From a virus, in the UHGV virus genome UHGV-0039337: a stretch of 64,000 bases of DNA. One strand, given 5' to 3'. Of this stretch, positions 31,908 through 52,934 are shown one piece after another. Position numbers and translations under genes: made by a program. The notes beneath the pieces were generated by a model. The model saw only the letters and a program-made list of their open reading frames with translations. It had not been told where the DNA came from and ran no database searches. How positions within the stretch are numbered: the stretch's first letter is position 1; each line of letters opens with the position of its first letter.

Positions 31908-32135
31908 ATGAGTAATAAAAAAGTTACTGGAGACGCCTTAAATAGAATTCTCAAAGCTAATAAAGAATATATAGATAACAGAGATTTGGGATTTGAAGAA
32001 ATTGACGTAGATCCAAATACAGGTTATATAATATCTAAAACATCGTCTCAATCTTATGGTGGATTATATTCTAATGATGTAACAACTAATTTAAATAGAA
32101 CACATAAAACGTCTAATGATACAGATACAAAATAA
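31908..32135 (+). CDS. small hypothetical protein (75 aa)
   Basis: ATG 31908 after GAGGTGATAA (track GTG 31899). Confidence 0.35.
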   Translation: MSNKKVTGDALNRILKANKEYIDNRDLGFEEIDVDPNTGYIISKTSSQSYGGLYSNDVTTNLNRTHKTSNDTDTK

Positions 32136-32165
32136 TGGGTCAATAAATTATTGACCCATTTATTG
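32135..32165 (+). terminator. rho-independent terminator / perfect palindrome
   Basis: ATGGGTCAATAA-A-TTATTGACCCAT is a perfect 12-bp-arm palindrome followed by TTATTG. Confidence 0.6.
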
Positions 32166-35590: not shown

Positions 35591-38500
35591 ATGCCAATTA
35601 AGAAAAAAATAAATGGTAGATGGGTCAATGTTACTGGTTCATCTACCAGTACTAATAATACTAAAGCAATCAATATTGGTATCACAGATTCATTAGGATT
35701 TTATGATACTGACAATGTGGAAGGCGCATTAGCAGAAATAGGTAATGATTTAAAAAATACTAATGCTAATATAGAAAAGGTAGCAGCAGAGCTCAAAGAC
35801 CATAAACAAAATCATCCAGGTGGAAGTGGCAGTAGTGGAGGAGCTACCTTACCTACAATAACTTCTGATTTTAAAACAACAACTTCAGATGGCAAATCGA
35901 ATATAGAAATTCCTATATTTTTTACTTCTCCTTCTTTAGGTGATGGTACTGCATATATTCTTGTTAAGAATGTAGAAATAGCTACACAACAAATACAACA
36001 AGGAAATAACACTATTATTGTGCCACCTATTGGAGCTGGTAAAAATATAAATATATCATTATATGTTAAAGATAGAGCAGGACTTATTTCTAATCAATTA
36101 ACGTGGTTAATTACTGCTGGCGGTATTGAGATGACAATAATTACTGATACAAAGGCAGATTACGATATAAATAACAGAATAGTTATATCTTATACTATAA
36201 GCTGTATTTCTAACGAAGATATATATGCTCACTTTGAAATAGATGGAAAAGATAATCAAGTTAAATCTATTAACGGATACAATAGCTATCAGTTAACTGG
36301 ATTAACTGTAGGTGTTCATAAGATTTCCTACTGGGCAGAATCTGGTGATTATAAAACCACTAGTAAATCTTTTAACTTAATAATTGTAAATGAAGATACA
36401 TTAATAGTATCTACTGAATTTGATTCAGATAAAGAATATGAAAGCGGTATACCTATTAGCATACCTTACAGAGTTTCTATAACTAAAGACGAAGACTTTA
36501 CTGTTAAAATGTATATAGACGGTAATTTAGATAAAACTATAGTTACTAGACCTACAAGTTTATATTGGTCTATAACTTCATTAGATATTGGCAATCATAC
36601 ATTGAAAATAGAAGCTATTAATGATTCGTTAAATCTTAGCAACTCTATAGAATTTGCATGTCATGTTATTGAAGGTGAATATACTAGAGTGCAGCCTGTA
36701 ATGGATGCTTCTTTACTGTGCTGGTTTGATGCCACAGACAAAACTAATAATGATAGCGATAGAGATGTATGGACAGATAAAATATTAGGTAATAAGGGTT
36801 ATTTACATAATTTTAACTATGGTTCTAACGGATGGATAACAAACGATTCTACTCATACTTCTGAACTAGTAATGGATGGTACATGTTATGTTGAAATAGA
36901 CATGACACCTTTTAAAGATAATTTTAAAAACGGTGGTACTATAGAATTGGTATTTAAAGTTAGAGATGTTGGAAATGTTGATGCAAGAGTTTTAGATATA
37001 ACAGATACAATTTCTCCTTATAAAGGCATTTATATAGACACACGTGATGCATATTTAGCAACTGAAGCAAGAACGACAACTGCCTCTATAGGTGAAGATG
37101 AGTATATACATGTTATGTATGAAATAGATAGAACTAATAAATATGCACATGTAATAGTAAATGGAGTAATTACTGGTTCATGTAAACTTAGTGATAGTGG
37201 TATAGGTACATCTGCTGTATTAGAATCTATAGCGCATACTCAAAAGATTTATCTTAATAGTCAAAAAGGCACAGATTTATTTGGTTCATGTGAAATTAAA
37301 CATTTTAGAATATATGATAGAGCATTAAGTTTTGATGAAATACTACAAAACTATTTATCTACTATTGAAGACATAAAAGTTCAAAAATCTAAAGTTGATT
37401 TTAATGATCCACTTAAGAATATAATGCCAATAATGAATATAACATGCGATCCTGAACTATTTTCTATAATGACAGATGTTAATCAAATAGAAGTTGCTAT
37501 GACTTATACATCTCCTAATGCAGATTTGTATGGACAAACATTGACAACAGCTACTAAGTGTTTAATGTATTGGCAAGGTACGTCTTCAAAAGGTTATAAT
37601 ATACATAACTATAATTTATATCTAAGAGATGACAATAGACAACCTATAGCTTATAGTCCATATCCTAATTGTATTCCTCAATCATTATTTTGCTTAAAAG
37701 CAAATTTAATGGAATCTACAAATGCTCATAACGTAGGTCTTGCAGGCTATGTTAGAAAATATTTATATACTCATAATAATCCGGCGCAAGATGCAGATCC
37801 ACGTGCATCTAGAGTTATTCAGGGATTTCCTTTCTTGTTATATATAAATGGTGAATTAGCTGGCGTATATGATTTTAATTTAGATAGATATTCGTACACA
37901 GCATTTGGCTATGATTTACCAGCTCATAAAAATAAATGCAAAGTATATGAAATATCTGCCAATACAAACAAAACTGCAGGAGCATTTATACCATGGAGTG
38001 CAGATACAGGAGTAGATGAATGGACATGGTATAAAAATGACTTTGGTGGTATATATCCAGAATCTATACAAAACTCTGTTAATGATGATTTTACTGAATT
38101 GAAAAACTTAATTAAGTTTGTACATGATTCAAATGATGAAAAATTTGTTACTGATTTTGAAACATATTTTGATAAAGAATCAGTTATCAGATATTACTTA
38201 TTTGTAATGGTTTTAGGCCTTGTTGACTCATTAGGTAAGAATGCTAAACTTGTTACTTATGATGGTGTCAAATGGTATTTTGAGTTTTATGATATGGATA
38301 CAGCCATGGGTCTAGATAATACTGGTGCAGTTAAATTTGATGTTGATATAGAAATGAGTATGGGCAAATTCAATACTGCAGAATCTACACTATGGGTAAG
38401 ATTAGATAGATTATTTCATGACGATATAGTTAATGAATATAACATGATGAGAAATCAAAACTTAACAGCTGAAAAAATATATGAGTGTATATTCACTGAC

Positions 38501-41500
38501 CAAATAGATAAAATACCTGAAAGTCAATATAATCTTAGTACTCAAAAGAAATATCTTGACACAGGTGAATATATTATGATGTCTAATGGTAACAGATATT
38601 ATGGACTTAAACGTTGGATAAAAGACAGAATTTTATATTGCGATACTTTATTTAATTACACGCCTTCTATTTCAGATTTTATTACAATACGTTCAGGTAT
38701 AACTGGAGAAGCTTATATTGATATCGAAACTTATTCTCCTATGTATTTGACTGTTAGATGGCGTAATGTAATTGACGGAACAGCTGACCAAAAACTTAAG
38801 ATAGGAAGAAATCAAAAAGTTAGATTCCAAGCTGAAGGTTTAAATATACCTTCAAACAAAGACCAAGAAATTATAATTTATGGAGCTAAACATATAAAAA
38901 GCTTTGGTCAATTAGACGGATTAATTCCTATGTATTTATATTTAAATAACGCTACAAAATTAACTAATGTAGAATGCCCGAATGATTCAGAATTATTAGT
39001 TGCTGAAATAGCTAATTGTAGTTATCTACAAAAGGTAGATTTTAGTGGCTGTAGTAGTTTAGGTACATTAGAAAAATATCAAGTTCTCGATGTTAGCGGA
39101 TGTAATAACTTAAGATATTTAAATGCATATGGTACGGTGTTAACGTCTATCAGCACTAATCAATCTGGTGGAAACTTAGTTGAAATGTATGTGCCTAAGA
39201 CATTACAAACATTATCATTGCAAAATCAATATAGTTTAAAAGTTATTGGTATACCTGGTGCGAGTACTTTAGAAAGCACTAAGCTATATGATTTAAAACA
39301 AAACGCTAGTAATATATCAAGCTTTACTCTTATCAATTGTCCTTTAGTTGAAAGATTAACTTATGCTTCAGATTTTACAGTAAACAGTAATTTCTTTGAT
39401 AATTTTACAAATGAACGTAGATCAGCAGAACTTAATTATTTAACTTATACTAAAAATGAGTGGAAACGTTTAATGTATTGGGGAAATGGTTTAGCTAACT
39501 GTTATAATATCAACATAGAAAACAGTTGTCATAATATACCTAGTATGAGCTTTAGAGGTATAAGTAATTTACAGAGTTTGAAACTTAGAGCAATGCCTGG
39601 ATTAAAAACTCTAATGCTTGGAGCTAACTGTTGTGGATACAGATATAATAATGATCCTACTTATGAATCTAATAAATATGATACAGTTGGAGAATTTGAT
39701 TGGGATACATTAAGTATAATAGATTGTCCTAATATAGAAGAATTTAGAATACATGAAATGTATCCATATAATTGGAATGAAGGTTCTAGTGGTAACTTAA
39801 CATATTTTACCTTTAAACCTGGAACAGAATCTATTAACTTAGCTGCTAAATTTCCTAACTTAAAAATATTTGAGTGTAATTGTGCTACACAAAATATACA
39901 TCAAATAATACTTCCTCAATCATTAAAAACTATTATGACTTGTGCATGGAATAATAGACATGATGAGGGTTTTCCTAATGAAGTTAAGATAGAACAATTT
40001 AATATAGATAGTATCTATTTTGAAGGAGAGCATGAAGAAAGCTATACTGGTATAGATTTAGGAAACCACGCGTTACAAAATGTATGTATAATTGCTCCTT
40101 ATGCTTCAGAGTTAATAGGAGTTAATATCACAAATACACATGTAAATCCTATATTTAATGATTTAAAAGAAGCAGATAATGAAAATAGACCATTTGTTAC
40201 TCCTAACGGTAGGATAGATGTATCTAAATTTAAATGGAAAAATATATCTGACTGGTTTGCGTATATAGATTTTACTAAGGGAAAATGTGAAGTTATAACT
40301 CCAACTAACTGGAAAACATTCTTGGTAGGTATACAAAAGGCTAGTAGAATGTTTTATCATTGTACAAATCCTGATTTTACTTGGGAATTTGCTATGGAAT
40401 TCTTTTCTAAGATAAATACCTATTCTGATTTAAGTTATATGTATCAATATGCACAATTAGCAGATCAAGCTGATTTTGATACTGCTGCTGTAGTAATGGA
40501 AAACAAATATAATATAGGCGGATATAACTATAATATAAAACCTTTTCTAGGAACTAATCTTAAATTCGTTAAATCATTTACTTTAACAGCATGTGATGGT
40601 GCATATGCTACATTTAGTGGATGCAGCAGTTTAATTAAAGTAGGAGATTGTAAATTTACAGGATCTAGATCTAGTACATGGGGAATAAGTTATTTATTTA
40701 ATAACTGTATTGCATTAGAAGAAGTAGGAAATATAACTTCTTATGCTAATAAAAATAGTAGTTCTACTATACCAATGGATAATACATTTGAAGGTTGTAA
40801 TAAGTTAAAGAAAATAGGCACATTAGATATATCAGTTAGCAGTATGAACTGTGCTTACTATGATTGTTCTGTATTGGAAGACAATGGATTAAGTTTACCT
40901 TATATGGGAAATTGTGTAGATGTAAGAAATGCATTCTTTGGATGTTATACTTTAACTGCTATTAATTTTGAAACACTTGAAAAGGTTATATATGCTGATG
41001 CATTCTTGCGTAATTGCTATGGATTGTTATCAATACATTTACCAAGCATCAATCGTGATCATCCATTACAAGAATTCTCTAGTGCATTTTCTGGATGTAC
41101 TGCATTAAAGACTATAACTATAGAAGGAGACACATTACCTATAGGATTAAGAAATATGAGCTATGCTTATTCTAATTGTCCATCATTAACTAACGTAATA
41201 CCAGTTCCTTCAGATTTTGTAAATGATGTAGACATGAGTGGATGTTGTAGTCGTTGTAGTTCATTAACAGATGATGCTATATATAAAGAAATACCATTTA
41301 GAGTTGTTAATACCAATTATATGTATGAACGTTGCAATAGTTTAATTTCTCCAACAGTTAATTTATTATGTGACAATGTAACTTCAAAACAAATGTTTAG
41401 ATATTGTGAAAATATGACTAGTTTAACAGTCAATTATAATGGACGTTTATTGCGTGATACTACTTTCTTTGCAGAATATTGCAACAGATTACAAACCGTT

Positions 41501-42040
41501 AATTTTAAATTCCCTAGCGCACTTGTAATGCATGAATACTATGGAACTGGAGTTACTTATTATAATATGTTCCAATATTGTGGTAGTTTATCTATAGTAA
41601 ATCTTAACATGTCTAAATTAGCAGATACTAATTCTAAAGCAGATTTTGGTAGCATGTTCTATGAAGATAAATATATTACAGAAATTCATGGATTAGATTT
41701 TGCTTATCTTAAAAAACCTATACGTAATTTTACTTCTAGTGGTCAAAGTCCTTACGATTGGCATGACACTTCTATTACATATGGTGGTACATATGAAAAC
41801 TTAACAACTTTAGATGTTACAGGTAAATTAACAACAAGCTATAACTTTAAAAATATTGCTACCATGGTTCATACTAAAGTTATTTTACGACACTTAGATA
41901 AAGTAACAAATGAAACATTAGGATTGACATATAATATAGTTGATGCCATAGATGATGAAAAAACAGAATCAGTAGATCAAGAATTAAAAGAATTAGCTAA
42001 TACAGCATTAAGCAATGGTTGGTCATTCATTATAGTATAA
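35591..42040 (+). CDS. giant multi-domain fibre/adhesin (2149 aa): Ig-like repeats, LamG/ConA-like jelly roll, CotH kinase-like domain, C-terminal BspA-type leucine-rich repeats
   Basis: TTAGGAGTTGA SD. LamG-like region about nt 36700-37350. CotH-like region about nt 37590-38650 (FLLYINGELAGVYDFNLDRYSYTAFG and WYFEFYDMDTAMGLDNTG fit the CotH pattern vNGey.GlY.l.E and D.D.tfG). From about nt 40540 to 41700 there are repeated units such as FEGCNKLKKIGTLDIS, AFFGCYTLTAINFETLEKVIYADAFLRNCYGLLSIHLP and FSSAFSGCTALKTITIEG, characteristic of BspA/TpLRR-type leucine-rich repeats. Confidence 0.6.
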   Translation: MPIKKKINGRWVNVTGSSTSTNNTKAINIGITDSLGFYDTDNVEGALAEIGNDLKNTNANIEKVAAELKDHKQNHPGGSGSSGGATLPTITSDFKTTTSDGKSNIEIPIFFTSPSLGDGTAYILVKNVEIATQQIQQGNNTIIVPPIGAGKNINISLYVKDRAGLISNQLTWLITAGGIEMTIITDTKADYDINNRIVISYTISCISNEDIYAHFEIDGKDNQVKSINGYNSYQLTGLTVGVHKISYWAESGDYKTTSKSFNLIIVNEDTLIVSTEFDSDKEYESGIPISIPYRVSITKDEDFTVKMYIDGNLDKTIVTRPTSLYWSITSLDIGNHTLKIEAINDSLNLSNSIEFACHVIEGEYTRVQPVMDASLLCWFDATDKTNNDSDRDVWTDKILGNKGYLHNFNYGSNGWITNDSTHTSELVMDGTCYVEIDMTPFKDNFKNGGTIELVFKVRDVGNVDARVLDITDTISPYKGIYIDTRDAYLATEARTTTASIGEDEYIHVMYEIDRTNKYAHVIVNGVITGSCKLSDSGIGTSAVLESIAHTQKIYLNSQKGTDLFGSCEIKHFRIYDRALSFDEILQNYLSTIEDIKVQKSKVDFNDPLKNIMPIMNITCDPELFSIMTDVNQIEVAMTYTSPNADLYGQTLTTATKCLMYWQGTSSKGYNIHNYNLYLRDDNRQPIAYSPYPNCIPQSLFCLKANLMESTNAHNVGLAGYVRKYLYTHNNPAQDADPRASRVIQGFPFLLYINGELAGVYDFNLDRYSYTAFGYDLPAHKNKCKVYEISANTNKTAGAFIPWSADTGVDEWTWYKNDFGGIYPESIQNSVNDDFTELKNLIKFVHDSNDEKFVTDFETYFDKESVIRYYLFVMVLGLVDSLGKNAKLVTYDGVKWYFEFYDMDTAMGLDNTGAVKFDVDIEMSMGKFNTAESTLWVRLDRLFHDDIVNEYNMMRNQNLTAEKIYECIFTDQIDKIPESQYNLSTQKKYLDTGEYIMMSNGNRYYGLKRWIKDRILYCDTLFNYTPSISDFITIRSGITGEAYIDIETYSPMYLTVRWRNVIDGTADQKLKIGRNQKVRFQAEGLNIPSNKDQEIIIYGAKHIKSFGQLDGLIPMYLYLNNATKLTNVECPNDSELLVAEIANCSYLQKVDFSGCSSLGTLEKYQVLDVSGCNNLRYLNAYGTVLTSISTNQSGGNLVEMYVPKTLQTLSLQNQYSLKVIGIPGASTLESTKLYDLKQNASNISSFTLINCPLVERLTYASDFTVNSNFFDNFTNERRSAELNYLTYTKNEWKRLMYWGNGLANCYNINIENSCHNIPSMSFRGISNLQSLKLRAMPGLKTLMLGANCCGYRYNNDPTYESNKYDTVGEFDWDTLSIIDCPNIEEFRIHEMYPYNWNEGSSGNLTYFTFKPGTESINLAAKFPNLKIFECNCATQNIHQIILPQSLKTIMTCAWNNRHDEGFPNEVKIEQFNIDSIYFEGEHEESYTGIDLGNHALQNVCIIAPYASELIGVNITNTHVNPIFNDLKEADNENRPFVTPNGRIDVSKFKWKNISDWFAYIDFTKGKCEVITPTNWKTFLVGIQKASRMFYHCTNPDFTWEFAMEFFSKINTYSDLSYMYQYAQLADQADFDTAAVVMENKYNIGGYNYNIKPFLGTNLKFVKSFTLTACDGAYATFSGCSSLIKVGDCKFTGSRSSTWGISYLFNNCIALEEVGNITSYANKNSSSTIPMDNTFEGCNKLKKIGTLDISVSSMNCAYYDCSVLEDNGLSLPYMGNCVDVRNAFFGCYTLTAINFETLEKVIYADAFLRNCYGLLSIHLPSINRDHPLQEFSSAFSGCTALKTITIEGDTLPIGLRNMSYAYSNCPSLTNVIPVPSDFVNDVDMSGCCSRCSSLTDDAIYKEIPFRVVNTNYMYERCNSLISPTVNLLCDNVTSKQMFRYCENMTSLTVNYNGRLLRDTTFFAEYCNRLQTVNFKFPSALVMHEYYGTGVTYYNMFQYCGSLSIVNLNMSKLADTNSKADFGSMFYEDKYITEIHGLDFAYLKKPIRNFTSSGQSPYDWHDTSITYGGTYENLTTLDVTGKLTTSYNFKNIATMVHTKVILRHLDKVTNETLGLTYNIVDAIDDEKTESVDQELKELANTALSNGWSFIIV

Positions 42041-42051
42041 GGAGTGATTAT

Positions 42052-42324
42052 ATGAGAGTATATAAAAACAGTTTAGGTATAACATGTATAGAACCAGCTG
42101 ATGGATATTTGCTAAGTAAGAACGGACAAACTTTTAAAAAAGCATGCTTAGGTAAAAATGATAGAGCTGAGTTATATACAGAAATAAAAAATGAAGATGT
42201 TGGACATGAAATTCAAAATACTACCTTTGATGTATCTGATAACATGATATTAATAAGTCCAAACGGAAAACGATTTAAATTAGTCGTCAATAACGATGGC
42301 TCATTAAGTACTAAAGAGATATAG
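42052..42324 (+). CDS. small hypothetical protein (90 aa)
   Basis: ATG 42052 after AAGGAGTGA (track start 42019 lies inside the previous gene). Confidence 0.4.
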   Translation: MRVYKNSLGITCIEPADGYLLSKNGQTFKKACLGKNDRAELYTEIKNEDVGHEIQNTTFDVSDNMILISPNGKRFKLVVNNDGSLSTKEI

Positions 42325-42330
42325 TATACA

Positions 42331-42355
42331 GGGCCGGATTAATTCCGGTCCTTTT
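42331..42355 (+). terminator. rho-independent terminator
   Basis: GGGCCGGA / TCCGGTCC stem (one G-U pair), loop TTAAT, then TTTT. Confidence 0.65.
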
Positions 42356-42409
42356 ATATGTATTTGTATTTTACGTAATTCTATTATAAATAATAATTTA
42401 AAGGAGGTC

Positions 42410-42535
42410 ATTACACCTACTAATAATTATAATCCAGCTACCAAGAAATATGTTGACGACAAATCAGTAATAATCGATACAGATTTAAATACTGCTATAG
42501 CTAATATATTTGGATCAGATTATTCTATCTTATAA
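42410..42535 (+). pseudogene. degenerate fibre-gene N-terminal fragment lacking a canonical start codon
   Basis: Perfect SD AAAGGAGGT at 42400-42408 but no ATG/GTG/TTG follows. The open frame reads ITPTNNYNPATKKYVDDKSVIIDTDLNTAIANIFGSDYSIL*. ATKKYVDD matches ATKKYVDN at the N-terminus of the 47228 fibre gene. Confidence 0.4.
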
Positions 42536-42545
42536 TAATATAAAT

Positions 42546-42572
42546 AGAGCCGTTTTATTCGGCTCTTTTTTA
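42546..42572 (+). terminator. rho-independent terminator
   Basis: AGAGCCG / CGGCTCT stem with 7-nt loop, then TTTTTT. Confidence 0.65.
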
Positions 42573-42573
42573 T

Positions 42574-42798
42574 GTAATTTTATTATAGAGATTAAAGTCT
42601 AAAGGAGGTCGTATGAAATTGCTGCTAATGACGACATAATAAAATCGTTATTAGATATTTTGGGATAAAAGAGATGCAAATATAATAGGTGCATCTATCG
42701 TTATTCAATTTACAGAAGTTACTATTTAAACTACAGATATTGAAGTAACTTCTATGTTAGATAAAATATTTACATAAATAATAAAAAGGAGTGCTAAA
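42574..42798 (+). other. non-coding stretch with a duplicated 5' leader/SD unit and frameshifted coding remnants
   Basis: GTAATTTTATTATAGAGATTAAAGTCTAAAGGAGGTC duplicates GTAATTCTATTATAAATAATAATTTAAAGGAGGTC (42374-42409). It is followed by a 9-codon micro-ORF (MKLLLMTT*) and short open stretches in three frames (..IAANDDIIKSLLDILG*, ..IGASIVIQFTEVTI*, ..TTDIEVTSMLDKIFT*). Confidence 0.4.
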
Positions 42799-44265
42799 AT
42801 GGCTAATACTAAATTAATAAATTGCGATCAACTTCAAATTTCATTACAGAAAGTTAAAGATTATGTAGATGGTAAGTTTGCAGTAGCTGATCATAATCAC
42901 AATAATGTTTATTATACGCAAACACAAATAAACAATAAAATAAATAATATTAATTCTGCAATAGGCGGTAAAGCTAATGCAACACATTCACATAAATCAA
43001 GTGATGTTACAACCATGGGAGGATATTCTAAACCAGATTCTACTGGTGCTATAGCTACTACTGATACTTTAAATGCTGCAATTGGTAAATTAGAAACAGC
43101 ATTAGATGGTAAATCTAGCTCTAGTCATAATCATAATGGGGTTTATTTACCTATAAATGGTACAGCAGCTAGCGCTACTAAATTAGCTACAGCTAGAACT
43201 ATAAATGGTATAGAATTTGACGGTACTAAAGCTATAACTATAACAGCTAACCCTAATGCTCATAATCAGGCTTCAAATACAATAAATGCAATGACAGGAT
43301 ATGCTATAGCTAAAGCTTCTGCAGCAATAGCTACTACAGATAGTTTAAATACTGCTATAGGAAAACTAGAATATGCAATAGGACAAAAACAAGCTAGTGG
43401 TTCTTATGCTTCAGCCAATCATAATCATGATAACAGATATTATACAGAAACAGAAATAAATACTAAAATATCTGATTTACAAACTGCTGATACAAATAAT
43501 TTAGCTAATGCTAAAGCATATACTGATGCTGCTATTGATAAAATAACCGGAGAAGGCGTATCGGAAGCTCTTGATACATTAAAAGAATTAGGAGATGCAT
43601 TAAATAACGATGCTAATTTTGCAAGTACTATGACTACTGCATTAGCTGGTAAAGCAGATTCAAACCATATCCATGATGTTGCTACAACTACTACTGATGG
43701 ATTTATGTCATCTGATATGGTAACTAAATTAAATGGCATAGCTAATAATGCTAACAATTATGTGCATCCAACTACTGTTGGTAATAAACATATTCCTGCT
43801 GGTGGAGCTACAGGACAATTTTTAGGTTATTCAGCTGCTGGCACTGCTCAATGGGTAGCTAATCCTAATACAGATAGCAAAGTAAATACTGCAGCAGATA
43901 CAACTAGTACTAAATTATATTTAACTGGTGCTACTGGAGCTACTACTGCTGGATTGAAATATAGTTCATCTATTTTCTTTAGTGCTAAAGATGGTACCAT
44001 AACTGCTTCAGGGTTTAATGGCAAAGCTACTAGTGCCGGTTCTGCCGATACTGCTTCTGCTTGTTCTGGTAATGCAGCATCTGCTAGTAAAGTAAATAGT
44101 TCATTAACTATACAATTTAATGGTGTTAATAATAAAACATTTAATGGTAGTTCAGCACAAACAGTTAATATAACTCCTGCTTCAATAGGAGCTGCTACAA
44201 CTGCCGATACTGCTAAAGCAACAGACAAAGAAGTAAGCGATATGCTAACTACTATTTTTGGATAA
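42799..44265 (+). CDS. tail fibre protein with Phage_fiber_2-type repeats (488 aa)
   Basis: AAAGGAGTGCTAAA SD. KLATARTINGIEFDGTKAITITA matches the tail-fibre repeat known from coliphage fibres (laTaRtinGvsFDGsaNit). Spaced HNHN / HSH / HNHNG / HNHD motifs. GEGVSEALDTLKELGDALNNDANFAS motif shared with the 47228 and 27034 genes. Confidence 0.6.
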   Translation: MANTKLINCDQLQISLQKVKDYVDGKFAVADHNHNNVYYTQTQINNKINNINSAIGGKANATHSHKSSDVTTMGGYSKPDSTGAIATTDTLNAAIGKLETALDGKSSSSHNHNGVYLPINGTAASATKLATARTINGIEFDGTKAITITANPNAHNQASNTINAMTGYAIAKASAAIATTDSLNTAIGKLEYAIGQKQASGSYASANHNHDNRYYTETEINTKISDLQTADTNNLANAKAYTDAAIDKITGEGVSEALDTLKELGDALNNDANFASTMTTALAGKADSNHIHDVATTTTDGFMSSDMVTKLNGIANNANNYVHPTTVGNKHIPAGGATGQFLGYSAAGTAQWVANPNTDSKVNTAADTTSTKLYLTGATGATTAGLKYSSSIFFSAKDGTITASGFNGKATSAGSADTASACSGNAASASKVNSSLTIQFNGVNNKTFNGSSAQTVNITPASIGAATTADTAKATDKEVSDMLTTIFG

Positions 44266-44320: not shown

Positions 44321-46939
44321 ATGGCAAATAATAAAAATATTACATTTGATCAACTTCAAACTTCTCTTAAAAAAGTAAAATCAGCTATCGATGGTAAAGC
44401 AAATACCAGTCATGGAAACCATGTTCCTACTACTGGTACAACCGATAACGCTACATATTTAAGAAATGATAATTCATGGCATAAAATAGTGCCTTCAGAT
44501 ATAGGTGCAGCCCCTTCTGTTCATGGGACACATGTCACATATTCTACAACTGCTCCGTCAGCTCCTGGAACTGCTTCTGCAGGTACTGCTGATAATGTAT
44601 CAAGAGGAGATCACGTACATCCTCTTCAAACTACAATAAGCGGTAATGCCGGTAGTGCTACTAAACTTGCCAATGCTCGTAATTTAACTGTAGGAAATAC
44701 AAAAAAATCATTTAATGGTACAGCTGATGTATCATGGAGTTTAAATGAAATAGGAGCAGCTGCTTCTGGTCATACTCATAATTGTTTTGCAATTAAAGGC
44801 GAAAATACTATATCCGGTATTGCAAATGATACTACAGAAAAATGGAAAGATCATGGTAATTCTGTACACTGGTATACAAAAGCAAATCAAATAACAGGTC
44901 AGCCTTCTCCATATGGTTTCCTTACTAACTGGGCTTCAGGTGGAGACGTTCATCAATTATGGATGACACAAAGTTCTGGAAACATGTTTCATAGAGGTGG
45001 TAATAATGATGGATGGTATGGTACTTGGAGAACAATATTAGATGAAAATAATTTTACTGCTTATTCTCCTACGTTAAGTGGTGGAGGAGCAATGGGTATA
45101 TGGGCAATTAGCGTTACTGGTAACGCAGGTACAGCTACTAAACTTGAAGAATCAAAAACTATAAATGGAACTAGTTTTGATGGTTCTAGTAATATAACTA
45201 CTGCTAATTGGGGTACTGCTAGAACTATTACTATAGGAAATAAAAGCAAATCAGTTAACGGTTCTGCAAATGTATCATGGACATTAGATGAAATAGGTGC
45301 TTTTCCGTTAACTGGTGGTATGTTGAGTAGTGGAGTAGGTATTGTAAATACTTATGGCGAAGCATGGTTTGATATTGGAGCCAATGATACATATGTATAT
45401 AATAAAAATAGCAATAAATCATTACAATTAAAGCATACTGGTGAATTAGTTTATGACGAAACATTTATTTTAGCTAATGAAGACGAAGGCGGTAAAATAA
45501 CTATAAAATCTACTGCTAATAATAATAATACAACAAATTATGGTGTTGGCGGTAGTGATATATATATAGATAACGTTAAAACAGGTAAAGCTTTGCAATT
45601 AAAAAATGACGGAACATTAAGATATAATGATAATATAATTTTAGATTCTAGCAACTATTCTTCTTATACTACTAGAAGATGTTGCGTAGTAGGACAAACA
45701 GGAAACTCTACAAGTAAACCTTATTATCTATTTGCTTATATAATTGCAAATGGATCTAACATGGATAGAGAAATAACATTTAAAGTAAGCACAGGATATG
45801 ATAATATTAAAGCTTCTGGTATATTAAGAGCACATTTAAGAACTAATTCAAATAATTATGTACAGAATGCACAATTATATTGGGAATATGCTAATACTGG
45901 TATAGAAGAAAGTAATTTTATCTTAGCATATGGTACAGGAGTGAATCCTACAGTTGAATTATGGGTTAAATGTGATGTAGCTTGGATGATGTATCATTTT
46001 GAAGTAATACAAGAAATTGCAAGAGACGAACATTATTTAGATCCTAAATGGATGTTGCAAACTTGTTGTCAAGAAGGTTATGCTGATTCTCCTACTAGTG
46101 GATATACTCAAGTGCCTAGTACAATTTTACAATTAAAAAATAGTGCACAATATGCATCAGCACTAAATGATGTTCAATATGCATCAGCATTGGATAATGC
46201 TCAATATACATCAACATTAGATAATGATATACAAATAGAAATAAATCCTTCATCAGGTAATGATAATGTTGAATTAGCAGATGGTGCAGTATATAAAACA
46301 ATTGCAGGAGTACTAGATGCATTACCTAAATTTTTAAACGGTAAACGAGTAAATATCTGGATGCGTGCTGATATAACTGAAAATGCAGACTTTCAAAATT
46401 ATACTAGTGGACAAATAAAATTTTACCTAGATGGACACACATTATACGGATATATTAGAAACTATATGAGTAGTGTTAAAGTGACTGTATATGGTGGATG
46501 GCCAGGTACCGAAAAAGGACATGTTGGAATAATTCACCCACCTGTAGGATGCGCAGTTGCCGGAAGAACAGGTAGCTTTATTTCACAAGAAAACTCCTCA
46601 ATGGATGCTTATAGCGTAAAAATATATGGTAGTGATAATCTGAATTCTTCTGGAACTTCCAATACTGTTGGTGTTATAGGAGACTCGTTTGCTACAATCT
46701 ATACTGAAAATGTTCAGTTTGTAAATTGTGATATAGGATTTAGGGGAAGTACCGGTGCTAGAATACATGATGCGAATTCAAGCGGTGTATGTAGTCAATA
46801 TGGTTATCAAGTTACAAGCGGTGCTTTCATAACAATTGATAACGCTGCCCACTGCGGTGGCAAAACTGCAAATACTGACCAAACATTGCCAGGGCAAATA
46901 ATAGCACACGCTAGCGCTACATATGCAAGCGGTAATTAA
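44321..46939 (+). CDS. tail fibre protein (872 aa) with the same repeat family and a C-terminal distal domain
   Basis: AAAGGAGATATTAG SD. Repeats KLANARNLTVGNTKKSFNGTADVSWSLNEIGAA and KLEESKTINGTSFDGSSNITTANWGTARTITIGNKSKSVNGSANVSWTLDEIGA. Internal tandem QYASALNDV / QYASALDNA / QYTSTLDND repeats. Gly/Thr-rich C-terminal domain. Confidence 0.6.
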   Translation: MANNKNITFDQLQTSLKKVKSAIDGKANTSHGNHVPTTGTTDNATYLRNDNSWHKIVPSDIGAAPSVHGTHVTYSTTAPSAPGTASAGTADNVSRGDHVHPLQTTISGNAGSATKLANARNLTVGNTKKSFNGTADVSWSLNEIGAAASGHTHNCFAIKGENTISGIANDTTEKWKDHGNSVHWYTKANQITGQPSPYGFLTNWASGGDVHQLWMTQSSGNMFHRGGNNDGWYGTWRTILDENNFTAYSPTLSGGGAMGIWAISVTGNAGTATKLEESKTINGTSFDGSSNITTANWGTARTITIGNKSKSVNGSANVSWTLDEIGAFPLTGGMLSSGVGIVNTYGEAWFDIGANDTYVYNKNSNKSLQLKHTGELVYDETFILANEDEGGKITIKSTANNNNTTNYGVGGSDIYIDNVKTGKALQLKNDGTLRYNDNIILDSSNYSSYTTRRCCVVGQTGNSTSKPYYLFAYIIANGSNMDREITFKVSTGYDNIKASGILRAHLRTNSNNYVQNAQLYWEYANTGIEESNFILAYGTGVNPTVELWVKCDVAWMMYHFEVIQEIARDEHYLDPKWMLQTCCQEGYADSPTSGYTQVPSTILQLKNSAQYASALNDVQYASALDNAQYTSTLDNDIQIEINPSSGNDNVELADGAVYKTIAGVLDALPKFLNGKRVNIWMRADITENADFQNYTSGQIKFYLDGHTLYGYIRNYMSSVKVTVYGGWPGTEKGHVGIIHPPVGCAVAGRTGSFISQENSSMDAYSVKIYGSDNLNSSGTSNTVGVIGDSFATIYTENVQFVNCDIGFRGSTGARIHDANSSGVCSQYGYQVTSGAFITIDNAAHCGGKTANTDQTLPGQIIAHASATYASGN
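46145..46228 (+). repeat. three tandem ~30-nt coding repeats inside the 44321 gene
   Basis: caatatgcatcagcactaaatgatgtt / caatatgcatcagcattggataatgct / caatatacatcaacattagataatgat. Confidence 0.6.
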
Positions 46940-47227
46940 ACGACCGATAGTACTTCAGCCTAATACTTATTGCGACTAAGATTACTATAATTAAATCTAA
47001 TAATGGTATTATAAAAGGAGTTTTAATATTCAATCTACCTATATAATGCAGCAAACTATGCAGTATATTCTGGTAGCTTAACAATGAAAATTACTTACAC
47101 AGAATAATGTTTAGTTAAATTAACTAAGCAAAGTAATAATATATATGAATGCAGTAATAGGATTAGTCAAATATTAGCTAGTCCTATTATTATGTATATA
47201 TTATTTACAGAGAAAAGGAGAAATATA

Positions 47228-47767
47228 ATGGCAAATTTAACATTTCTAGAAGCATTAAATAAATCATTAATTGCTACTAAAAAATATGTTGATAACTCAG
47301 TAGCTGGAATAGTGGATTCAGCGCCAGAAACTTTAAATACTTTAAAAGAATTATCTACAGCTTTAGGAGATGATCCTAATTTTGCTACTACTGTTGCAAC
47401 TAATATAGGAAAAAAAGTAGATAAAATAGAAGGGAAAACATTAACAGCTAATGATTTAACAAATGAATTAAAAGCTAATTACGATGCTGCATATGCTCAT
47501 AGTCAAGTGGCACATGCTCCAGCTGATGCACAAAAAAATAGTGATATAACTAAAGATGAAATAGAAGCTAAATTAACTGGTGATATAAGTTCTCATACAC
47601 ATAGCCAGTATTTAACAGAACATCAAAATTTGGATGAATATGCTCCTAAGAAATATGTGGATGATAAAATGGCAAATTTAAGTATAGTAAAAATATCTAA
47701 AACTGATTTTGAAGCATTAACTACAAAAGATGCTAATACTTTATATTTAGTATTAGAAGATTCATAA
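47228..47767 (+). CDS. short tail fibre protein (179 aa)
   Basis: ATG 47228 after AAAAGGAGAAA (track start 47192). PETLNTLKELSTALGDDPNFATTVATNIGKK and a C-terminal TDFEALTTKDANTLYLVLED are typical short-fibre motifs. SSHTHSQY is an HxH motif. Confidence 0.5.
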   Translation: MANLTFLEALNKSLIATKKYVDNSVAGIVDSAPETLNTLKELSTALGDDPNFATTVATNIGKKVDKIEGKTLTANDLTNELKANYDAAYAHSQVAHAPADAQKNSDITKDEIEAKLTGDISSHTHSQYLTEHQNLDEYAPKKYVDDKMANLSIVKISKTDFEALTTKDANTLYLVLEDS

Positions 47768-47792: not shown

Positions 47793-49295
47793 ATGGCAAC
47801 ATTAAAAATAAAACCGTCATCTTACACTACAAACAAATGGAAAAATATAGAAAAAATGTATGATAATGATACCAGTACATACGCATCATGCACTGTTAAC
47901 TTGACTACTAATGATCTATCATGTGATCTTCATATAACTAAACCTTCCCTACCCGATTATTACATTATTAATAACATAAAATTACATTTAGTAGCAAGAG
48001 GTAAAACAATGACAAATGATGGAGGTCATTGGCTTAGAATATATATAAATGAAACTAATCAAATATCAGATTTACATTTAGGATTTTGTGATGGTATTGA
48101 ATATGATATACCATTAACAATAGATCAATATAATCAAATGAATGAAAATAATAGTATGAAATTAACAGCACATAGGGCCAACTCTAGAACTAACATTAAT
48201 ATTTATATATTTGATTTTTATATTGAAATAGATTATACCGATTTAAGTCAAACTATGATAACTGATACAAACGACGATATTTGGATTTATAAAAATGGAA
48301 CAATTACTATAGATATTAATGCTTATCCTAAAACATTAATAAATTGGTCAGTTGATAATCCAAATATAATAGATTTACAACTTATATCCAATGGATTTTC
48401 ATGCAATATAACAGGTAAAGCTGTAGGAGAGTGTATTGTAACTGCAGTTCATTCAGAAAATAGTGAATGTAAAACTCAATTCAAGATTAATGTTAATAAA
48501 TTAATTGAAAATAATTATTGCTCTTTTATATTAAATAACGTTACTTTGAATCATATTATGATAGGGGAACAAAATGTTGCTTTTGTTTATCTTGGAAACA
48601 CTAAAGTATTTGAATATAAAACTCATATACCATACAGTGAGTTTAAATTTAACACTTTAACAAAAGACTTTACCATGCCTTTATACACTAGATTAACTTC
48701 TCAAACATATACAAAAGCATATATAGATCGTCTTGATGGACATATACGTAATTATGCTGCAGCTCCTCCTGGCGAACTTGAGGAAGACGATAGTTCAATA
48801 GCAACAGTAGATTATATACCAGTATATGATAATGAAGAAATAATATTTAATTATCCATCGACTGAATATGGTATAGGATTATGTAGCTATACTGGAATTC
48901 ATGAATATTATAAAACATGGTTTGGTCCTGATAAAGGTTGGGGTAATTACAATATGAGTGATTCTGGTGGAGACGTAACCGGTACTACAACGACATGTAT
49001 TATTCCTGAAGGAGCTAAATACATAAGATGGTGTGGCAACAATATGACTGGAGAACAAATATTTGCTAGACGATATAGCGTACAAAATATCGATTTAATA
49101 CCTTATCCTCCAAATAGTACATATACTTTTAATACAGAATATAAATCTAGCGATGAGTCTGTAGCTGTAATTGAAGGTTCAATGATACGTGCTAAATCTG
49201 CTGGTAATTGCATTATAACTGTTACGCATGGTCAAATTAGTACAAATATTAATTTAACTATAATAGATAATAGCAATGATTTCACAACATATTAA
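47793..49295 (+). CDS. tail protein with C-terminal Big_2 (bacterial Ig-like) domain (500 aa)
   Basis: AAAGGAGAGG SD. C-terminus SDESVAVIEGSMIRAKSAGNCIITVTHGQISTNINLTII fits Big_2. A second Ig-like segment lies around WSVDNPNIIDLQLISNGFSCNITGKAVGECIVTAV. Confidence 0.5.
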   Translation: MATLKIKPSSYTTNKWKNIEKMYDNDTSTYASCTVNLTTNDLSCDLHITKPSLPDYYIINNIKLHLVARGKTMTNDGGHWLRIYINETNQISDLHLGFCDGIEYDIPLTIDQYNQMNENNSMKLTAHRANSRTNINIYIFDFYIEIDYTDLSQTMITDTNDDIWIYKNGTITIDINAYPKTLINWSVDNPNIIDLQLISNGFSCNITGKAVGECIVTAVHSENSECKTQFKINVNKLIENNYCSFILNNVTLNHIMIGEQNVAFVYLGNTKVFEYKTHIPYSEFKFNTLTKDFTMPLYTRLTSQTYTKAYIDRLDGHIRNYAAAPPGELEEDDSSIATVDYIPVYDNEEIIFNYPSTEYGIGLCSYTGIHEYYKTWFGPDKGWGNYNMSDSGGDVTGTTTTCIIPEGAKYIRWCGNNMTGEQIFARRYSVQNIDLIPYPPNSTYTFNTEYKSSDESVAVIEGSMIRAKSAGNCIITVTHGQISTNINLTIIDNSNDFTTY

Positions 49296-49511: not shown

Positions 49512-50906
49512 GTGATAATAATGAAAAATCAATTACTTAATATAGCTTATTTGCGTTGTAGTACAGATGACCAAGATGTAGCACATCAATTATCAAGTAT
49601 AGAAAAATTCTGCGAAAGTCAAAATATAGTTATAGACAAAGTAATTAAAGACGAAGGCGTAAGTGCTTATAGTAAAAGTGCATATGAAAGAAAAGGCTTT
49701 AGTGAAGTAATACATTTAGTAGAAGAAAACAAGGTTAATAAACTTATATTATTCGAATCTTCTAGATTATCTAGAAATTTTCATGAAGGACAAAATTTAA
49801 TTAAATTCTTTAGTGACAAAAGAGTGGAGATATATAGTGTAGTAGATGGTGGTATAATTAATGCTACTGAAGTAGATGAATTATTAAATAGTATTAGGTA
49901 TTGGCTTAATCAAAAAGCCAGTAAAGAAACAAGTGATAGAATTAAAAGTCAAAAAAAGTTAGCTAAATCCAAAGGAGAATTTCTGGGACATCCTGTTCCA
50001 CTAGGATTTAAAATAGAAAACAAGCATGAAATTATAGACGAAGATAAGCGTAATTTTATTATTGAATTATTTAATACTTATATTAATCAAAGTTCTAGAG
50101 CATGTATAGATTTATTAAAAACTATAGGAATCAAAGCTAATCATCAAACGCTATTGCAAAGGATAAAAAATGATAAATATATACAAATAGTAGGAAAAGA
50201 TACTTTTAACAAAGCCCAAGAAACCATACAATCTAGAAGATGTAATAAAGGAAATAATACCAGAACTTTAAACAGGAGTAATATTTTATATGAGGGTTTA
50301 TTATACCATCTATGTGGTAGCAAACTTACAATAGATAAAAATAGAAAAGGTGAACCTGTTTTTAGATGTAGAAGATGCAAACATAATTTAGATATAAATA
50401 TTAAAAAATCTTTTATTGGTAATCCTTTAATGAACAATATTAACAAAGATATGTATGAAATAATCAATAATTTAGATAGGAATAAATTAGAAGAGAAGTA
50501 TAAAGAACGTAATAACAAACAACGCTCAATAATATCTTACAAAATACACGAACTAAAAGCATCTATTAAAAGCAAGAAAAAATCTTATGCTTTAGCTAAT
50601 AATAAATTAGAAAAAATATTAATATCTGATATGGATGATTCACTTATATCTACTGTGGCTAATACTGTTAACAATATAAAAAAAGAGATAGAAGAATTAG
50701 AAAAGGAATTAAATATTGAGCAAGAAAAAATAGATACTATAGACGAACAAGCGAAATTTAATGCTGGTTTAATTAATAAAATAATCAACTTAAAAGATGT
50801 GTATATAAACGGAAGTGACAAGAAAAAGAAGGCTATACTTAACTTTATGATAGATAAAGTAATAGTTTATGACATTGATAAGTTTGATATTTTTTTAAAA
50901 ATATGA
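49512..50906 (+). CDS. large serine recombinase (resolvase catalytic domain, recombinase domain, zinc ribbon, coiled-coil tail)
   Basis: N-terminus LNIAYLRCSTDDQDVAHQ carries the serine-recombinase catalytic motif (R-x-S-T-x-x-Q). A Cys-x2-Cys-x16-Cys-x2-Cys zinc ribbon (CGSKLTIDKNRKGEPVFRCRRCKHN) and a K/E-rich coiled-coil C-terminus follow. At 464 aa it falls in the large-serine-recombinase class (phiC31 Int / TnpX / SpoIVCA), not the small Gin/Hin invertases. The start may be ATG 49521 rather than GTG 49512. Confidence 0.8.
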   Translation: MIIMKNQLLNIAYLRCSTDDQDVAHQLSSIEKFCESQNIVIDKVIKDEGVSAYSKSAYERKGFSEVIHLVEENKVNKLILFESSRLSRNFHEGQNLIKFFSDKRVEIYSVVDGGIINATEVDELLNSIRYWLNQKASKETSDRIKSQKKLAKSKGEFLGHPVPLGFKIENKHEIIDEDKRNFIIELFNTYINQSSRACIDLLKTIGIKANHQTLLQRIKNDKYIQIVGKDTFNKAQETIQSRRCNKGNNTRTLNRSNILYEGLLYHLCGSKLTIDKNRKGEPVFRCRRCKHNLDINIKKSFIGNPLMNNINKDMYEIINNLDRNKLEEKYKERNNKQRSIISYKIHELKASIKSKKKSYALANNKLEKILISDMDDSLISTVANTVNNIKKEIEELEKELNIEQEKIDTIDEQAKFNAGLINKIINLKDVYINGSDKKKKAILNFMIDKVIVYDIDKFDIFLKI

Positions 50907-50984: not shown

Positions 50985-52934
50985 ATGGCTAAAAAAGAGC
51001 AGTTTGATGCTTTACAAATAGTAAATGACAGTCTAAAACTTTATGTAAAAGAAAAAATAGCAGAAGCGAAAATATCAGGTGGAGATGTTGATCTTAGTAA
51101 TTATGTTACTAAAATTACAGGTAATGCTAGTCAAATTACTTTTAATGATGGTCAATCTTTTCAAGATAAATTAAATAATGGCACTTTAAAAGGTGATAAA
51201 GGAGACAAAGGTAATGATGGTGCAATTGGACCTCAAGGACCTGCTGGTGAAAAAGGTGACCAAGGTGAAGTAGGGCCTCAAGGACCTGCCGGAGAAAAAG
51301 GAGATACTGGCCCACAAGGACTAGCAGGTGTTGATGGTACACCTGGAGCTAAAGGTGATAAAGGTGAAATTGGAGAACAGGGACCAAAAGGAGATACTGG
51401 ACCTGCCGGTAAAGATGGAGCTGATGGATTAACTACAGCTGTATCTGTTAATGGTGTTACTTATAACCATATTAATGGAGTAATTACATTGCCTAACTAT
51501 CTTAGTCAAATATATAAAACTCCTAAATTTATTACAACAACTACTACTTCATACAAAGATTCGTCAGGTAATACAGGTTTTACAATAGATTTAGGTATTC
51601 CTACGACTTCTGTATTATCTATAGATAGTATAGTTGTTACTGCTAAATATCAAAATACTGATTTAAAAATAACTCATGTAAAATTAGAAAACAATTCAAC
51701 TAATTGGAATTTATTGGCAACAGTAGAGGGATATGATGCTAATCAAAAATATACTGTATCAGTAGCCATATTTAATTATGGAGAAGAATTAACTGTAGCG
51801 GAAGCATTAAATAAATTATTTGCTAAAGTTTATTTAGGTTCTATATCTCCCGCTGGCTCTGGTAGTGGAGAAACTACTACTGAAACATTAACTATAAGCA
51901 ATATAGCAAATATAACACAAAATATTAAAACATCATTCTATATAGAATATAGCACTAATATAGCGGTGACAAAACATGAAGTATCGTGGGATGGTGGAGA
52001 CACATTCTATGATAAAACTGGTGACGTTACTTCTATTGGTAATAATCATAAGTTTTTACATGACGATAAAGCAAATGCTGGAACATATAACATGGCTATA
52101 AGAGTTACAACTGCTAAAGGTACAACTAAGACAAGTAATATATTTACTGTTACTTTAGTAGATAATAGTGAAGATGAATATGCTATGTCTTGTACTTCTG
52201 AATATATTCTAGACAAGATGTATCCAATGCCACAAAACCATGAAGCAGTACCGAGTGGTGTTACTGATACATGGGCTACTCAATCTCGTTGGGAGAATCA
52301 ACAAAGACCTACTGCCGCAGCACATAACTGTGGTCAAGCGAATTGTCCAGGAGCAGTACAATTTAAAGCTTTAGGTGCTTGGGCTAATGTATATAGAGTA
52401 AAAGATTCAGGATTTAGTTCTAATACTGGAGTTGAAATGAGAAACATAAAAGTTTACGGATGGTATAATGGTCAATGGGAAAAAGTACAAGATATGGCTG
52501 TGCCTGATGGTAATTTTTACACTGAAAGTTTCTCTGGAGATAGTAATCAATACTTTAGTGACAGTATTAAAACTACAAGCACTAGTAAAACTATAATTTT
52601 AAGAGAAAAAAATAAGGTTAATGGTGAAAACTGCATGTACCACCCATTCTCAAAAATAAAGAATTTTGATGTAAAATATGAATATGTATATACTTGCATA
52701 GATTTACGTAAGGTCAAATGGGATGAAAGTGGAGTAGATGATAGAGATAGTTCTCATTACTGTGCAAGTTGTGGTGGTGACTGGTGGTTAGCTGAAGGGT
52801 TAACATTTGATAGTAGTTGGCAACATAACAAAGGTGTAGCCCAACCTAAGATAATAGAAATTACAAATAAGTGGAGAAGATTCTCTATGACTACTGTTCC
52901 ACAAGACTGGACAAGTGGGTTTCCCACCAAATAG
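50985..52934 (+). CDS. collagen-like fibre protein (649 aa)
   Basis: GAAAGGAGCTGA SD. About 80 residues of uninterrupted G-X-Y triplets ([79 protein letters not shown]). Contains a module ([22 protein letters not shown]...TVTLVDN) paralogous to a segment of the 53692 gene. Confidence 0.6.
51192..51428 (+). repeat. collagen G-X-Y triplet repeat coding region
   Basis: Tandem ggNNNNNNN triplet codon periodicity visible in the sequence. Confidence 0.7.

Follow-up and report, generated by a model that had tools for sequence, protein, structure and literature searches.

The subject of this analysis is a 474-nucleotide (nt) spacer at positions 42325-42798 of a 64,000-nt stretch of the virus genome UHGV-0039337, the whole of which is referred to here as the window. 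The spacer separates a gene for a 90-amino-acid (aa) protein (42052-42324) from the gene for a 488-aa fibre (42799-44265); a gene for a 2149-aa CotH/leucine-rich repeat (LRR) protein lies upstream of the 90-aa gene, genes of 872, 179 and 500 aa lie downstream of the 488-aa gene, and all large genes of the window are on the plus strand. The source is an uncultivated, low-GC jumbo phage (~29% G+C) whose contigs of 268-272 kb derive from metagenomes of wastewater and of the human gut (cohorts including Hadza and Nepal). Read from 5' to 3', the proposed layout of the spacer is terminator 1, leader A with its Shine-Dalgarno (SD) sequence, a relic of a gene called here fibre A, terminator 2, leader B with its own SD, a relic of a mini-gene, a relic of a second fibre gene (fibre B), and the SD of the 488-aa gene. 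Very probably the spacer consists of three genes of the tail-fibre locus that have decayed side by side, each accompanied by part of its own expression signals.

The first of these relics is an open frame on the plus strand that runs from 42410 to 42532, with its stop codon at 42533-42535, and that encodes ITPTNNYNPATKKYVDDKSVIIDTDLNTAIANIFGSDYSIL. It directly abuts an SD and holds no usable ATG, GTG or TTG, as an initial annotation made from the window alone had recognised; that annotation had further taken the frame for the N-terminus of a fibre, whereas it is the last 41 codons of fibre A. The peptide comprises 17 residues of a module end with a PATKKYVDD linker, followed by a 24-aa tail, KSVIIDTDLNTAIANIFGSDYSIL. 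An exhaustive search of 1.84 billion representative proteins by phmmer, with the 41-aa peptide as query (E <= 0.001), gave 436 matches, mostly long proteins, and in most of them peptide residues 2-20 (TPTNNYNPATKKYVDDKSV) align to 2-10 separate stretches per protein; these residues therefore represent a repeated internal linker and not an N-terminus. The two whole-length matches both lie at the extreme C-terminus, at residues 606-645 of P0049 (645 aa, 76%) and 581-620 of P0051 (620 aa, 78%), and the 47-aa protein P0097 aligns to the last 32 peptide residues (91%). Both P0049 and P0051 start with MTKYIDDKGLQQALEKTKTYIDDK and end in ..TPTxxYHPATKKYVDDKSVIVDTDLNAAVTSIFGSDYSIL, and their genes are situated between the 90-aa and 488-aa genes of the sister genomes L047 and L048, whose CotH/90-aa and 488-aa flanks are 94.6-95.0% identical to those of the window in nucleotides. 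It is this combination of a whole-length C-terminal match with intact genes at the same site that identifies 42410-42535 as the 3' end of fibre A.

Supporting this identification, the relic and the C-terminal end of the 645-aa allele are 82.5% identical over 40 residues (73.9 bits, where none of 300 dinucleotide shuffles, the control used for all peptide matches, scored above 24.6; the tblastn E value of 4e-21 is from a search limited to the two spacer sequences). The tails of the relic and of the 47-aa allele are 95.8% identical, and the relic shares its leader, its SD and the position of terminator 2 with the intact fibre A genes of L047, L048 and L049-L058. Colinear homology, occupation of the same site as an intact gene and loss of the start and N-terminal part (head, ATG and all modules are absent) together point to a fibre A pseudogene. 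The peptide match to the fibre at 47228 that had suggested an N-terminus is real (23.1 bits against a shuffle maximum of 19.2), but it extends over an 8-residue linker only, ATKKYVDD against ATKKYVDN.

In sister genomes, which match the window at 94.6-99.2% identity in the flanks, the occupants of the fibre A site form a graded series; the contigs compared have the 90-aa gene or a near-identical variant of it. Genes of 870 aa (L049, L051-L053 and L056-L058), 645 aa (L048), 620 aa (L047 and L055), 179 aa (L050 and L054) and 47 aa (L033-L035) are found, the start-less relic is present in the window and in L029-L031, and one genome (L032) has no copy at all; further lengths of 188, 365, 527/528 and 660 aa appear only in listings of the cluster, which shows roughly 150 contigs. 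Common to all intact alleles are a 23-aa head (MTKYIDDKGLQQALEKTK[T/A]Y[I/V]DD) and a 24-aa tail (KSVI[V/I]DTDLN..IFGSDYSIL), and between them stands a varying number of modules of 125-341 aa, each ending in ..TPTxxYxPATKKYVDD. When the alleles are cut at K.Y[VI]D[DI], the 870-aa allele resolves into modules A (140 aa), B (235), C (318) and D (130), and the 620-aa allele into E (125), C and D, the last two being 99.7% and 100% identical to those of the 870-aa allele. The 645-aa allele consists of E (96% identical), F (341) and G (132), the 179-aa allele holds G as its module (91.7% identical), and in the 47-aa allele the head is fused in frame to the tail with no module between them. Modules C, D, E and G are common to different alleles at 91.7-100% identity and all boundaries fall at K.Y[VI]D[DI] linkers; since cutting at this motif yields modules that are shared intact, the alleles differ by whole modules bounded at linkers. 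Fibre A is on this showing a motif-bounded modular, or mosaic, receptor-binding protein. The length of the site ranges from 269 to 3192 nt among near-identical genomes. The initial annotation had proposed a spacer of fibre remnants at a site of repeated deletion and cassette exchange, and this idea holds, with relatives carrying genes of 870, 645, 620, 179 or 47 aa or nothing. A spacer kept in the same form by relatives that lack any intact gene would have spoken for a regulatory role, and this is not the case; the remnant idea survives because sister genomes carry intact genes at this place.

The relics are set among transcription signals. Terminator 1 (42330-42356, plus strand), 3' of the 90-aa gene, consists of the hairpin GGGCCGGATTAATTCCGGTCC and a T tract; the hairpin (42330-42352) has a 9-bp stem with 6 GC pairs (-16.4 kcal/mol, z -3.8), is kept in the sister genomes compared and has a similar form in the distant relatives L037, L040 and L042. 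Terminator 2 (42546-42572, plus strand) belongs to the fibre A unit and joins the hairpin AGAGCCGTTTTATTCGGCTCT (42546-42566; 7-bp stem, -12.7 kcal/mol, z -4.6) to a T tract; it is identical, and directly 3' of the fibre A stop, in all six of the sister genomes aligned, which carry the 870-, 645-, 620-, 179- and 47-aa alleles. Both predicted sites, which the initial annotation had already picked out, combine a GC-rich hairpin and a T tract after a stop codon, as rho-independent terminators do.

Leader A (42367-42409, plus strand), the putative promoter and leader of fibre A, has the core GTAATTCTATTATA and the SD AAAGGAGG at 42400-42407, and it also precedes the intact 870-, 645-, 620-, 179- and 47-aa alleles, in which the ATG follows 7 nt after GGAGG. 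Leader B (42566-42610, plus strand; core GTAATTTTATTATAGAGAT, SD again AAAGGAGG) repeats leader A directly at a distance of 199-201 nt, with 82% identity over 28 nt and 76% over 25 nt separated by a 2-nt indel. The two leader/SD units described initially as near-identical are therefore a true repeat, but one of ~80% identity. Within it, TTTTAYGTAATTYTATTATA and TAAAGGAGGTC each have both of their two exact occurrences in the 64 kb. The comparison extends to five types of distant relative, with 49-70% identity to the window in the 90-aa protein (L044 49%, the other four 57-70%): in four of them (L037, L038, L040 and L042) the leader core GTAATTxTATTATAGA recurs upstream of the first gene after the 90-aa gene, within a single T-rich stretch plus leader in which the core lies ~20-25 nt before the SD. 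A GC hairpin is recognisable in front of the core in L037, L040 and L042, leader B aligns with the single terminator and leader 3' of the 90-aa gene in L040, and L044 has a core of only loose similarity and, within the stretch read, no visible terminator.

Because the core recurs at this place in L037, L038, L040 and L042, the leaders are read as conserved expression signals, probably promoters; sigma-70-like matches within them are weak and no more frequent than in shuffles. The terminator and leader copies, which had been counted among the debris of the spacer, are probably the transcription signals of two former gene units. Leader B was probably the leader of the mini-gene/fibre B unit and probably now serves as the leader of the 488-aa (488/872-aa) fibre transcript, while unit A, made up of leader A, the relic and terminator 2, is in the window probably a dead transcription unit. 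The leader repeat was also considered as a genome-wide promoter motif and rejected, as no clear enrichment of the core was found elsewhere in the window. The one other perfect match to the degenerate core in the window, GTAATTGCATTATAA at 49204-49218, lies near the end of the 500-aa gene and ~300 nt upstream of a recombinase gene, and may be due to chance.

Three routes of change may be proposed for the fibre A site. Recombination at the repeated coding sequences of the K-x-Y-V/I-D-D linkers would add, swap or remove whole modules, and such linker-by-linker recombination in frame would at its extreme produce the 47-aa head-to-tail gene. The lineage of the window would have undergone another deletion, probably illegitimate, beginning immediately 3' of the SD and ending 17 codons short of the tail, with loss of the ATG; its left side, read from a multiple alignment and the raw sequence, joins GGAGGT to CATTACACC just behind the SD. 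The window and a genome with the 47-aa allele are 99.2% identical in the CotH/90-aa flank and 96.9% in the 488-aa gene (nucleotides). Since the relic of the window keeps ..TPTNNYNPA and the 47-aa allele lacks it, the two are most simply explained as independent deletions of a longer ancestor. A donor was sought for the 45 nt specific to the window (..ACACCTACTAATAATTATAATCCAGCTACC..), and none was found elsewhere in the window or in the loci fetched, except in L029-L031 with the window's own allele.

The third route would be a homologous crossover between the leader copies (~40 nt, ~80% identical), removing the whole unit, as seen in L032. Here the site is shorter by 199 nt than that of the window, and after terminator 1 it reads CTTTTATATGTATTTATATTTTACGTAATT, of leader A type, and then TTATTATAGAGATTAAAGTC, of leader B type, with the join at GTAATT; on its sequence this junction is a crossover inside the leader repeat. 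L032, the window and L034 share their flanks (identity 99.2% upstream and ~97% within the 488-aa gene), and in all three the downstream spacer has decayed furthest; because of this shared background the state of L032 is read, by parsimony, as a secondary loss.

Downstream of leader B lies a frame of 16 codons, IAANDDIIKSLLDILG (42618-42668 with its stop, plus strand). Its counterpart in L047 is an ATG-initiated micro-open reading frame (micro-ORF), MTTSDDIINSSLDILG followed by a stop, with 9 nt between GGAGG and ATG, and in L048 and L049 the stop of the frame is lost. The window and its nearest relatives show ATT in place of this ATG, and 5 nt upstream of it they have gained an ATG in another frame. 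The latter, which was created by an A-to-G change and lies 4 nt after GGAGG, opens a new 8-codon ORF, MKLLLMTT plus stop (42613-42639, plus strand), out of frame with the relic; here L047, L048 and L049 have GTATAAAATG instead of GTATGAAATT. Intact mini-genes of 45-68 aa are found at this position in the relatives L037-L046. They lie directly 3' of the 90-aa gene in L038 (3420-3626), L040 (4088-4294), L042 (8774-8977) and L044 (778-915), and in L037 (2633-2803) a 194-aa fibre A homologue stands between the 90-aa gene and the mini-gene; a larger fibre gene follows 13-18 nt 3' of the mini-gene in the distant relatives. The mini-proteins possess a fibre-like N-terminal motif (..L.A....K.Y[VI]D) and a C-terminal motif (A[TS].EEV...L..[IV][FL]) only, and have no Pfam or PHROG match. 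The 16-codon frame appears to be the relic of such a mini-gene, a reading supported by its position.

Alignment with L047 and L049 identifies the next 15 nt, AAGAGATGCAAATAT (42669-42683, plus strand), as a remnant of the intergenic SD region formerly before fibre B; for comparison, the junction of the 68-aa and 500-aa genes in L040 reads aggagagatagatataatATG. The junction of a 110-nt deletion follows at 42683/42684, with AATAG repeats on both sides, and beyond it lies the 3'-end pseudogene relic of fibre B (42684-42777, plus strand), in which ..IGASIVIQFTEVTI ends at an in-frame TAA (42727-42729) and is followed by the fragment TTDIEVTSMLDKIFT and its stop (42730-42777). Against the C-terminus of the 500-aa fibre of L040, where the gene order is 90-aa, 68-aa, 500-aa and 489-aa, the relic is 50% identical over 30 aa (31.6 bits, shuffle maximum 21.6), and the nucleotide alignment (68% over 123 nt) runs through both stop codons. 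L049 keeps part of the N-terminal region of fibre B as KFISLD*LNMAMIKIKTY, the L040 counterpart of which is MAKLINLDQLNMAMTKIKTY, and the distance from fibre A to the 488-aa gene falls from 495 nt in L049 to 373 nt in L047 (122 nt less) and 263 nt in the window (a further 110 nt less). Homology, synteny and a disrupted frame thus agree in pointing to a relic of fibre B, the 500-aa fibre, which is intact in more distant relatives. The decay of the mini-gene and fibre B would have proceeded by start-codon loss, nonsense mutation and stepwise deletions. The initial annotation had reported several short out-of-frame remnants, and such fragments are present as MKLLLMTT, IAANDDIIKSLLDILG, ..IGASIVIQFTEVTI and TTDIEVTSMLDKIFT. 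The spacer ends with the SD (AAAAAGGAGTG) and the spacing nucleotides of the intact 488-aa fibre gene (42783-42798, plus strand).

The event type seen here is ordinary gene decay in a fast-changing host-recognition locus, a known kind of event, and the spacer probably yields no functional product. Several points weigh against this account. The direction of change, loss rather than gain, depends on parsimony, as the window and L032 nest among fibre A-bearing genomes, with 99.2% identity in the upstream flank and ~97% in the 488-aa gene. On its left side the deletion in the window has a breakpoint that can be placed only approximately, and a donor allele with ..TPTNNYNPATKKYVDD is absent from the loci fetched. 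The mini-gene assignment depends on 13 C-terminal residues and on synteny, and the match of ..AANDDIIKSLLDI to the 68-aa protein of L038 is marginal (61.5%, 21.2 bits against a shuffle maximum of 20.4). Finally, the four copies read of the window allele show no difference from one another, so that selection on this allele is not measurable, and the relics may be weakly translated or the retained cassette of leader A and terminator 2 may have a regulatory role.

Translation from a non-canonical start, which the initial annotation had offered as an alternative, would make the start-less frame, the ATT-initiated 16-codon frame or both into sources of a small, functional tail-only peptide. A perfect SD is kept before both frames, the 41-codon frame is open, the ATT at 42618 stands at a workable 9 nt after GGAGG, and the window allele is unchanged across several samples. 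The optimal distance between SD and start codon in Gram-positive bacteria is ~7-9 nt. However, the first ATT of the 41-codon frame lies 2 nt after GGAGG, against 7 nt for the ATG of the intact alleles, and no near-cognate codon in frame occurs 5-10 nt after GGAGG. The 23-aa head of every intact allele is absent, the whole unit is missing from L032, and the second relic varies freely, its stop having disappeared in L048 and L049 and an ATG in another frame having arisen in the window. A functional peptide of this kind is thus very unlikely; because the deletion removed the start codon, the relic is almost certainly untranslated. The well-formed state of both terminators and both leaders, the retention of the leader core in four of the five distant types (it is weak in L044) and the very probable service of leader B to the 488-aa gene at present could instead suggest that the spacer is mainly regulatory, with tandem terminator-promoter units and leader micro-ORFs tuning the 488/872-aa genes and the coding-like fragments being incidental. 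That would leave unexplained the significant, colinear homology of the fragments to the ends of intact genes at the same site. Furthermore, the region varies from a few hundred to a few thousand nucleotides among near-identical genomes, unit A is dispensable in L032 and the micro-ORFs are not kept as ORFs in relatives, all of which makes a mainly regulatory spacer distinctly unlikely.

A more elaborate proposal is that the fragments are a store of silent cassettes, or the targets of a serine recombinase, through which fibre ends would be switched in a programmed way, as in shufflons, Gin/Cin or pilS. The recurrence of fibre ends in the spacer and the presence of a serine recombinase gene (49512-50906) in the same fibre locus would suit it. 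Yet all fragments share the plus strand and the direction of the fibre genes; instead of long flanking inverted repeats there are only AT-rich arms of <=24 nt with 70-100% complementarity; the fragments hold the conserved tail and not the variable receptor-binding parts; their stops and deletions differ between genomes; and the recombinase, with its match to PHROG integrase, belongs to the large integrase type. Such a store is scarcely credible, and an invertible fibre-switching system of the Gin/Cin/Min or shufflon kind was rejected, the fragments being on a single strand and without substantial inverted repeats. A different view gives a role to small fibre proteins, in which the head-to-tail mini-proteins would be functional and not debris of deletions and the K-x-Y-V-D-D linker a widespread, hitherto undescribed recombination joint, with the extension that the relic of the window would still be made from ATT; this reading is unlikely. 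The 47-aa allele and the conserved 45-68-aa mini-genes of the more distant relatives all link a docking motif of fibre N-termini to a motif of fibre C-termini, and they might supply virion or assembly components, for example stubs that occupy or bridge docking sites. If true, the K-x-Y-V-D-D linker would allow gut phages to adjust how many modules a fibre has, even to none. The decay of three fibre-locus genes is the reading retained in what follows.

The relatives of this phage were seen only in ENA and Logan assemblies. A blastn search of 41800-43300 against GenBank phages gave no match, nor did the 90-aa protein against IMG/VR, while the 488-aa fibre gave in IMG/VR only 43-aa local matches on unrelated contigs; the exact 36-mer of leader B is absent from IMG/VR, the JGI metagenomes and GTDB genomes. 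Against Rfam the best scores of the spacer (22.7-23.6 bits) stayed below the gathering scores of 38-70, with none above threshold, and a tRNA scan of the spacer found none. The 488-, 872- and 179-aa proteins match PHROG tail-fibre families, and residues 151-175 of the 179-aa protein match Pfam PF24243, Phage_tail_C (E 3.6e-8). No family match in Pfam or PHROGs was obtained for the 90-, 47- and 68-aa proteins, and neither the fibre A tail (KSVIIDTDLNTAIANIFGSDYSIL) nor the 47-aa allele matches PF24243 or another Pfam or PHROG family.

The surrounding locus has further features of its own. The 2149-aa protein (35591-42040) carries a CotH kinase-like domain and LRR_5 repeats in the precomputed Pfam assignments, an unusual cargo beside fibre genes in a virion locus. 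The site of the 872-aa gene (44321-46939) is also variable in length among sister genomes, with complete genes of 871, 872, 881, 885 and 1050 aa and incomplete calls reaching the contig or locus end of at least 1061 aa (L048) and at least 727 aa (L050); residues 1-890 of the 1050-aa form in L047 are 86% identical to the 872-aa gene of the window. A second small graveyard occupies 46940-47227, between the 872-aa and 179-aa genes. It holds, at 47042-47107, the last 21 codons (YNAANYAVYSGSLTMKITYTE and stop) of the 1050-aa fibre that L047 has in place of the 872-aa gene, at 90% identity, with an orphan SD, AAAAGGAG (~47014), in front. The serine recombinase (461-464 aa; Pfam Resolvase E 1.6e-22, PHROG integrase E 3.5e-47) is encoded in the middle of the fibre locus with a called 39-aa ORF in front. 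The collagen-repeat protein (649 aa, 50985-52934) is polymorphic, being 664 aa long in L032 and 1376 aa long, with a Glyco_hydro_16 domain, in L047.

A C-terminal motif of the ATDxEVxxMLxxIFG type is shared by many fibres of the phage group (for example in L037, L040 and L044) and may be a common assembly or docking element. The 488-aa protein ends in ATDKEVSDMLTTIFG (44221-44265 with the stop), and a similar end, ..ADIDAILTAVYGA, is found on a 772-aa protein (31800-31843 with the stop). A 75-codon gene at 31909-32136 (MSNKKVTGDALNRILKANKEYIDNRD...) has an N-terminal motif like that of the fibre heads, lies between a terminator-like hairpin and a second hairpin, and appears in sister genomes as a called gene of 75 aa.

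Explained as ordinary decay, the spacer is not to be annotated as a gene or as a regulatory RNA. What it contributes is a natural allelic series (870, 645, 620, 179 and 47 aa, relic, no copy) at a single site in a jumbo phage common in the human gut, which shows entire receptor-binding modules being acquired, exchanged or dropped at a short conserved ..PATKKYVDD linker. This linker occurs 2-10 times per protein in hundreds of metagenomic fibre proteins; it offers a practical rule for splitting modules in host-range prediction and engineering, and the fibre A locus is a strain-level marker for these phages. Specific to this case are the linker ..TPTxxYxPATKKYVDD itself, its wide occurrence in metagenomic fibres and a series that is complete down to the relic; a literature search for the string KKYVDD returned no paper with the motif, although linkers described under other names were not covered by it. 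The profile of PF24243, annotated as a phage tail tip domain, begins at a KKYVDD-type motif, and the fibre A tail falls outside this family.

The closest known parallel is found in the distal fibre and adhesin genes of T-even phages (gp37/gp38), in which recombination between short conserved motifs, including the glycine-rich motifs of gp38, swaps or duplicates specificity segments, as outlined in PMC3157838 (Tetart et al. 1996, 1998 cited there). As in those genes, short motifs (here K-x-Y-V/I-D-D) delimit the variable segments of fibre A, alleles differ by whole segments and the locus concerned is one of host recognition. Unlike the T-even system, the units exchanged in fibre A are 125-341-aa domains within one fibre and not adhesin loops, the series reaches a module-less 47-aa gene, a start-less relic and complete loss, and the recombination is deduced from sequences of an uncultivated ~270-kb jumbo phage with SD signals of the Gram-positive type.

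More generally, phage mosaicism is known to leave pseudogene remnants and stranded 3' ends where receptor-binding genes are replaced. The spacer resembles such remnants in its stranded ends, lost starts, in-frame stops and stepwise deletions between intact fibre genes. It differs from them in the nearly complete allelic series that metagenomes supply here, and because this series is available each fragment of the spacer can be assigned to its parent gene.

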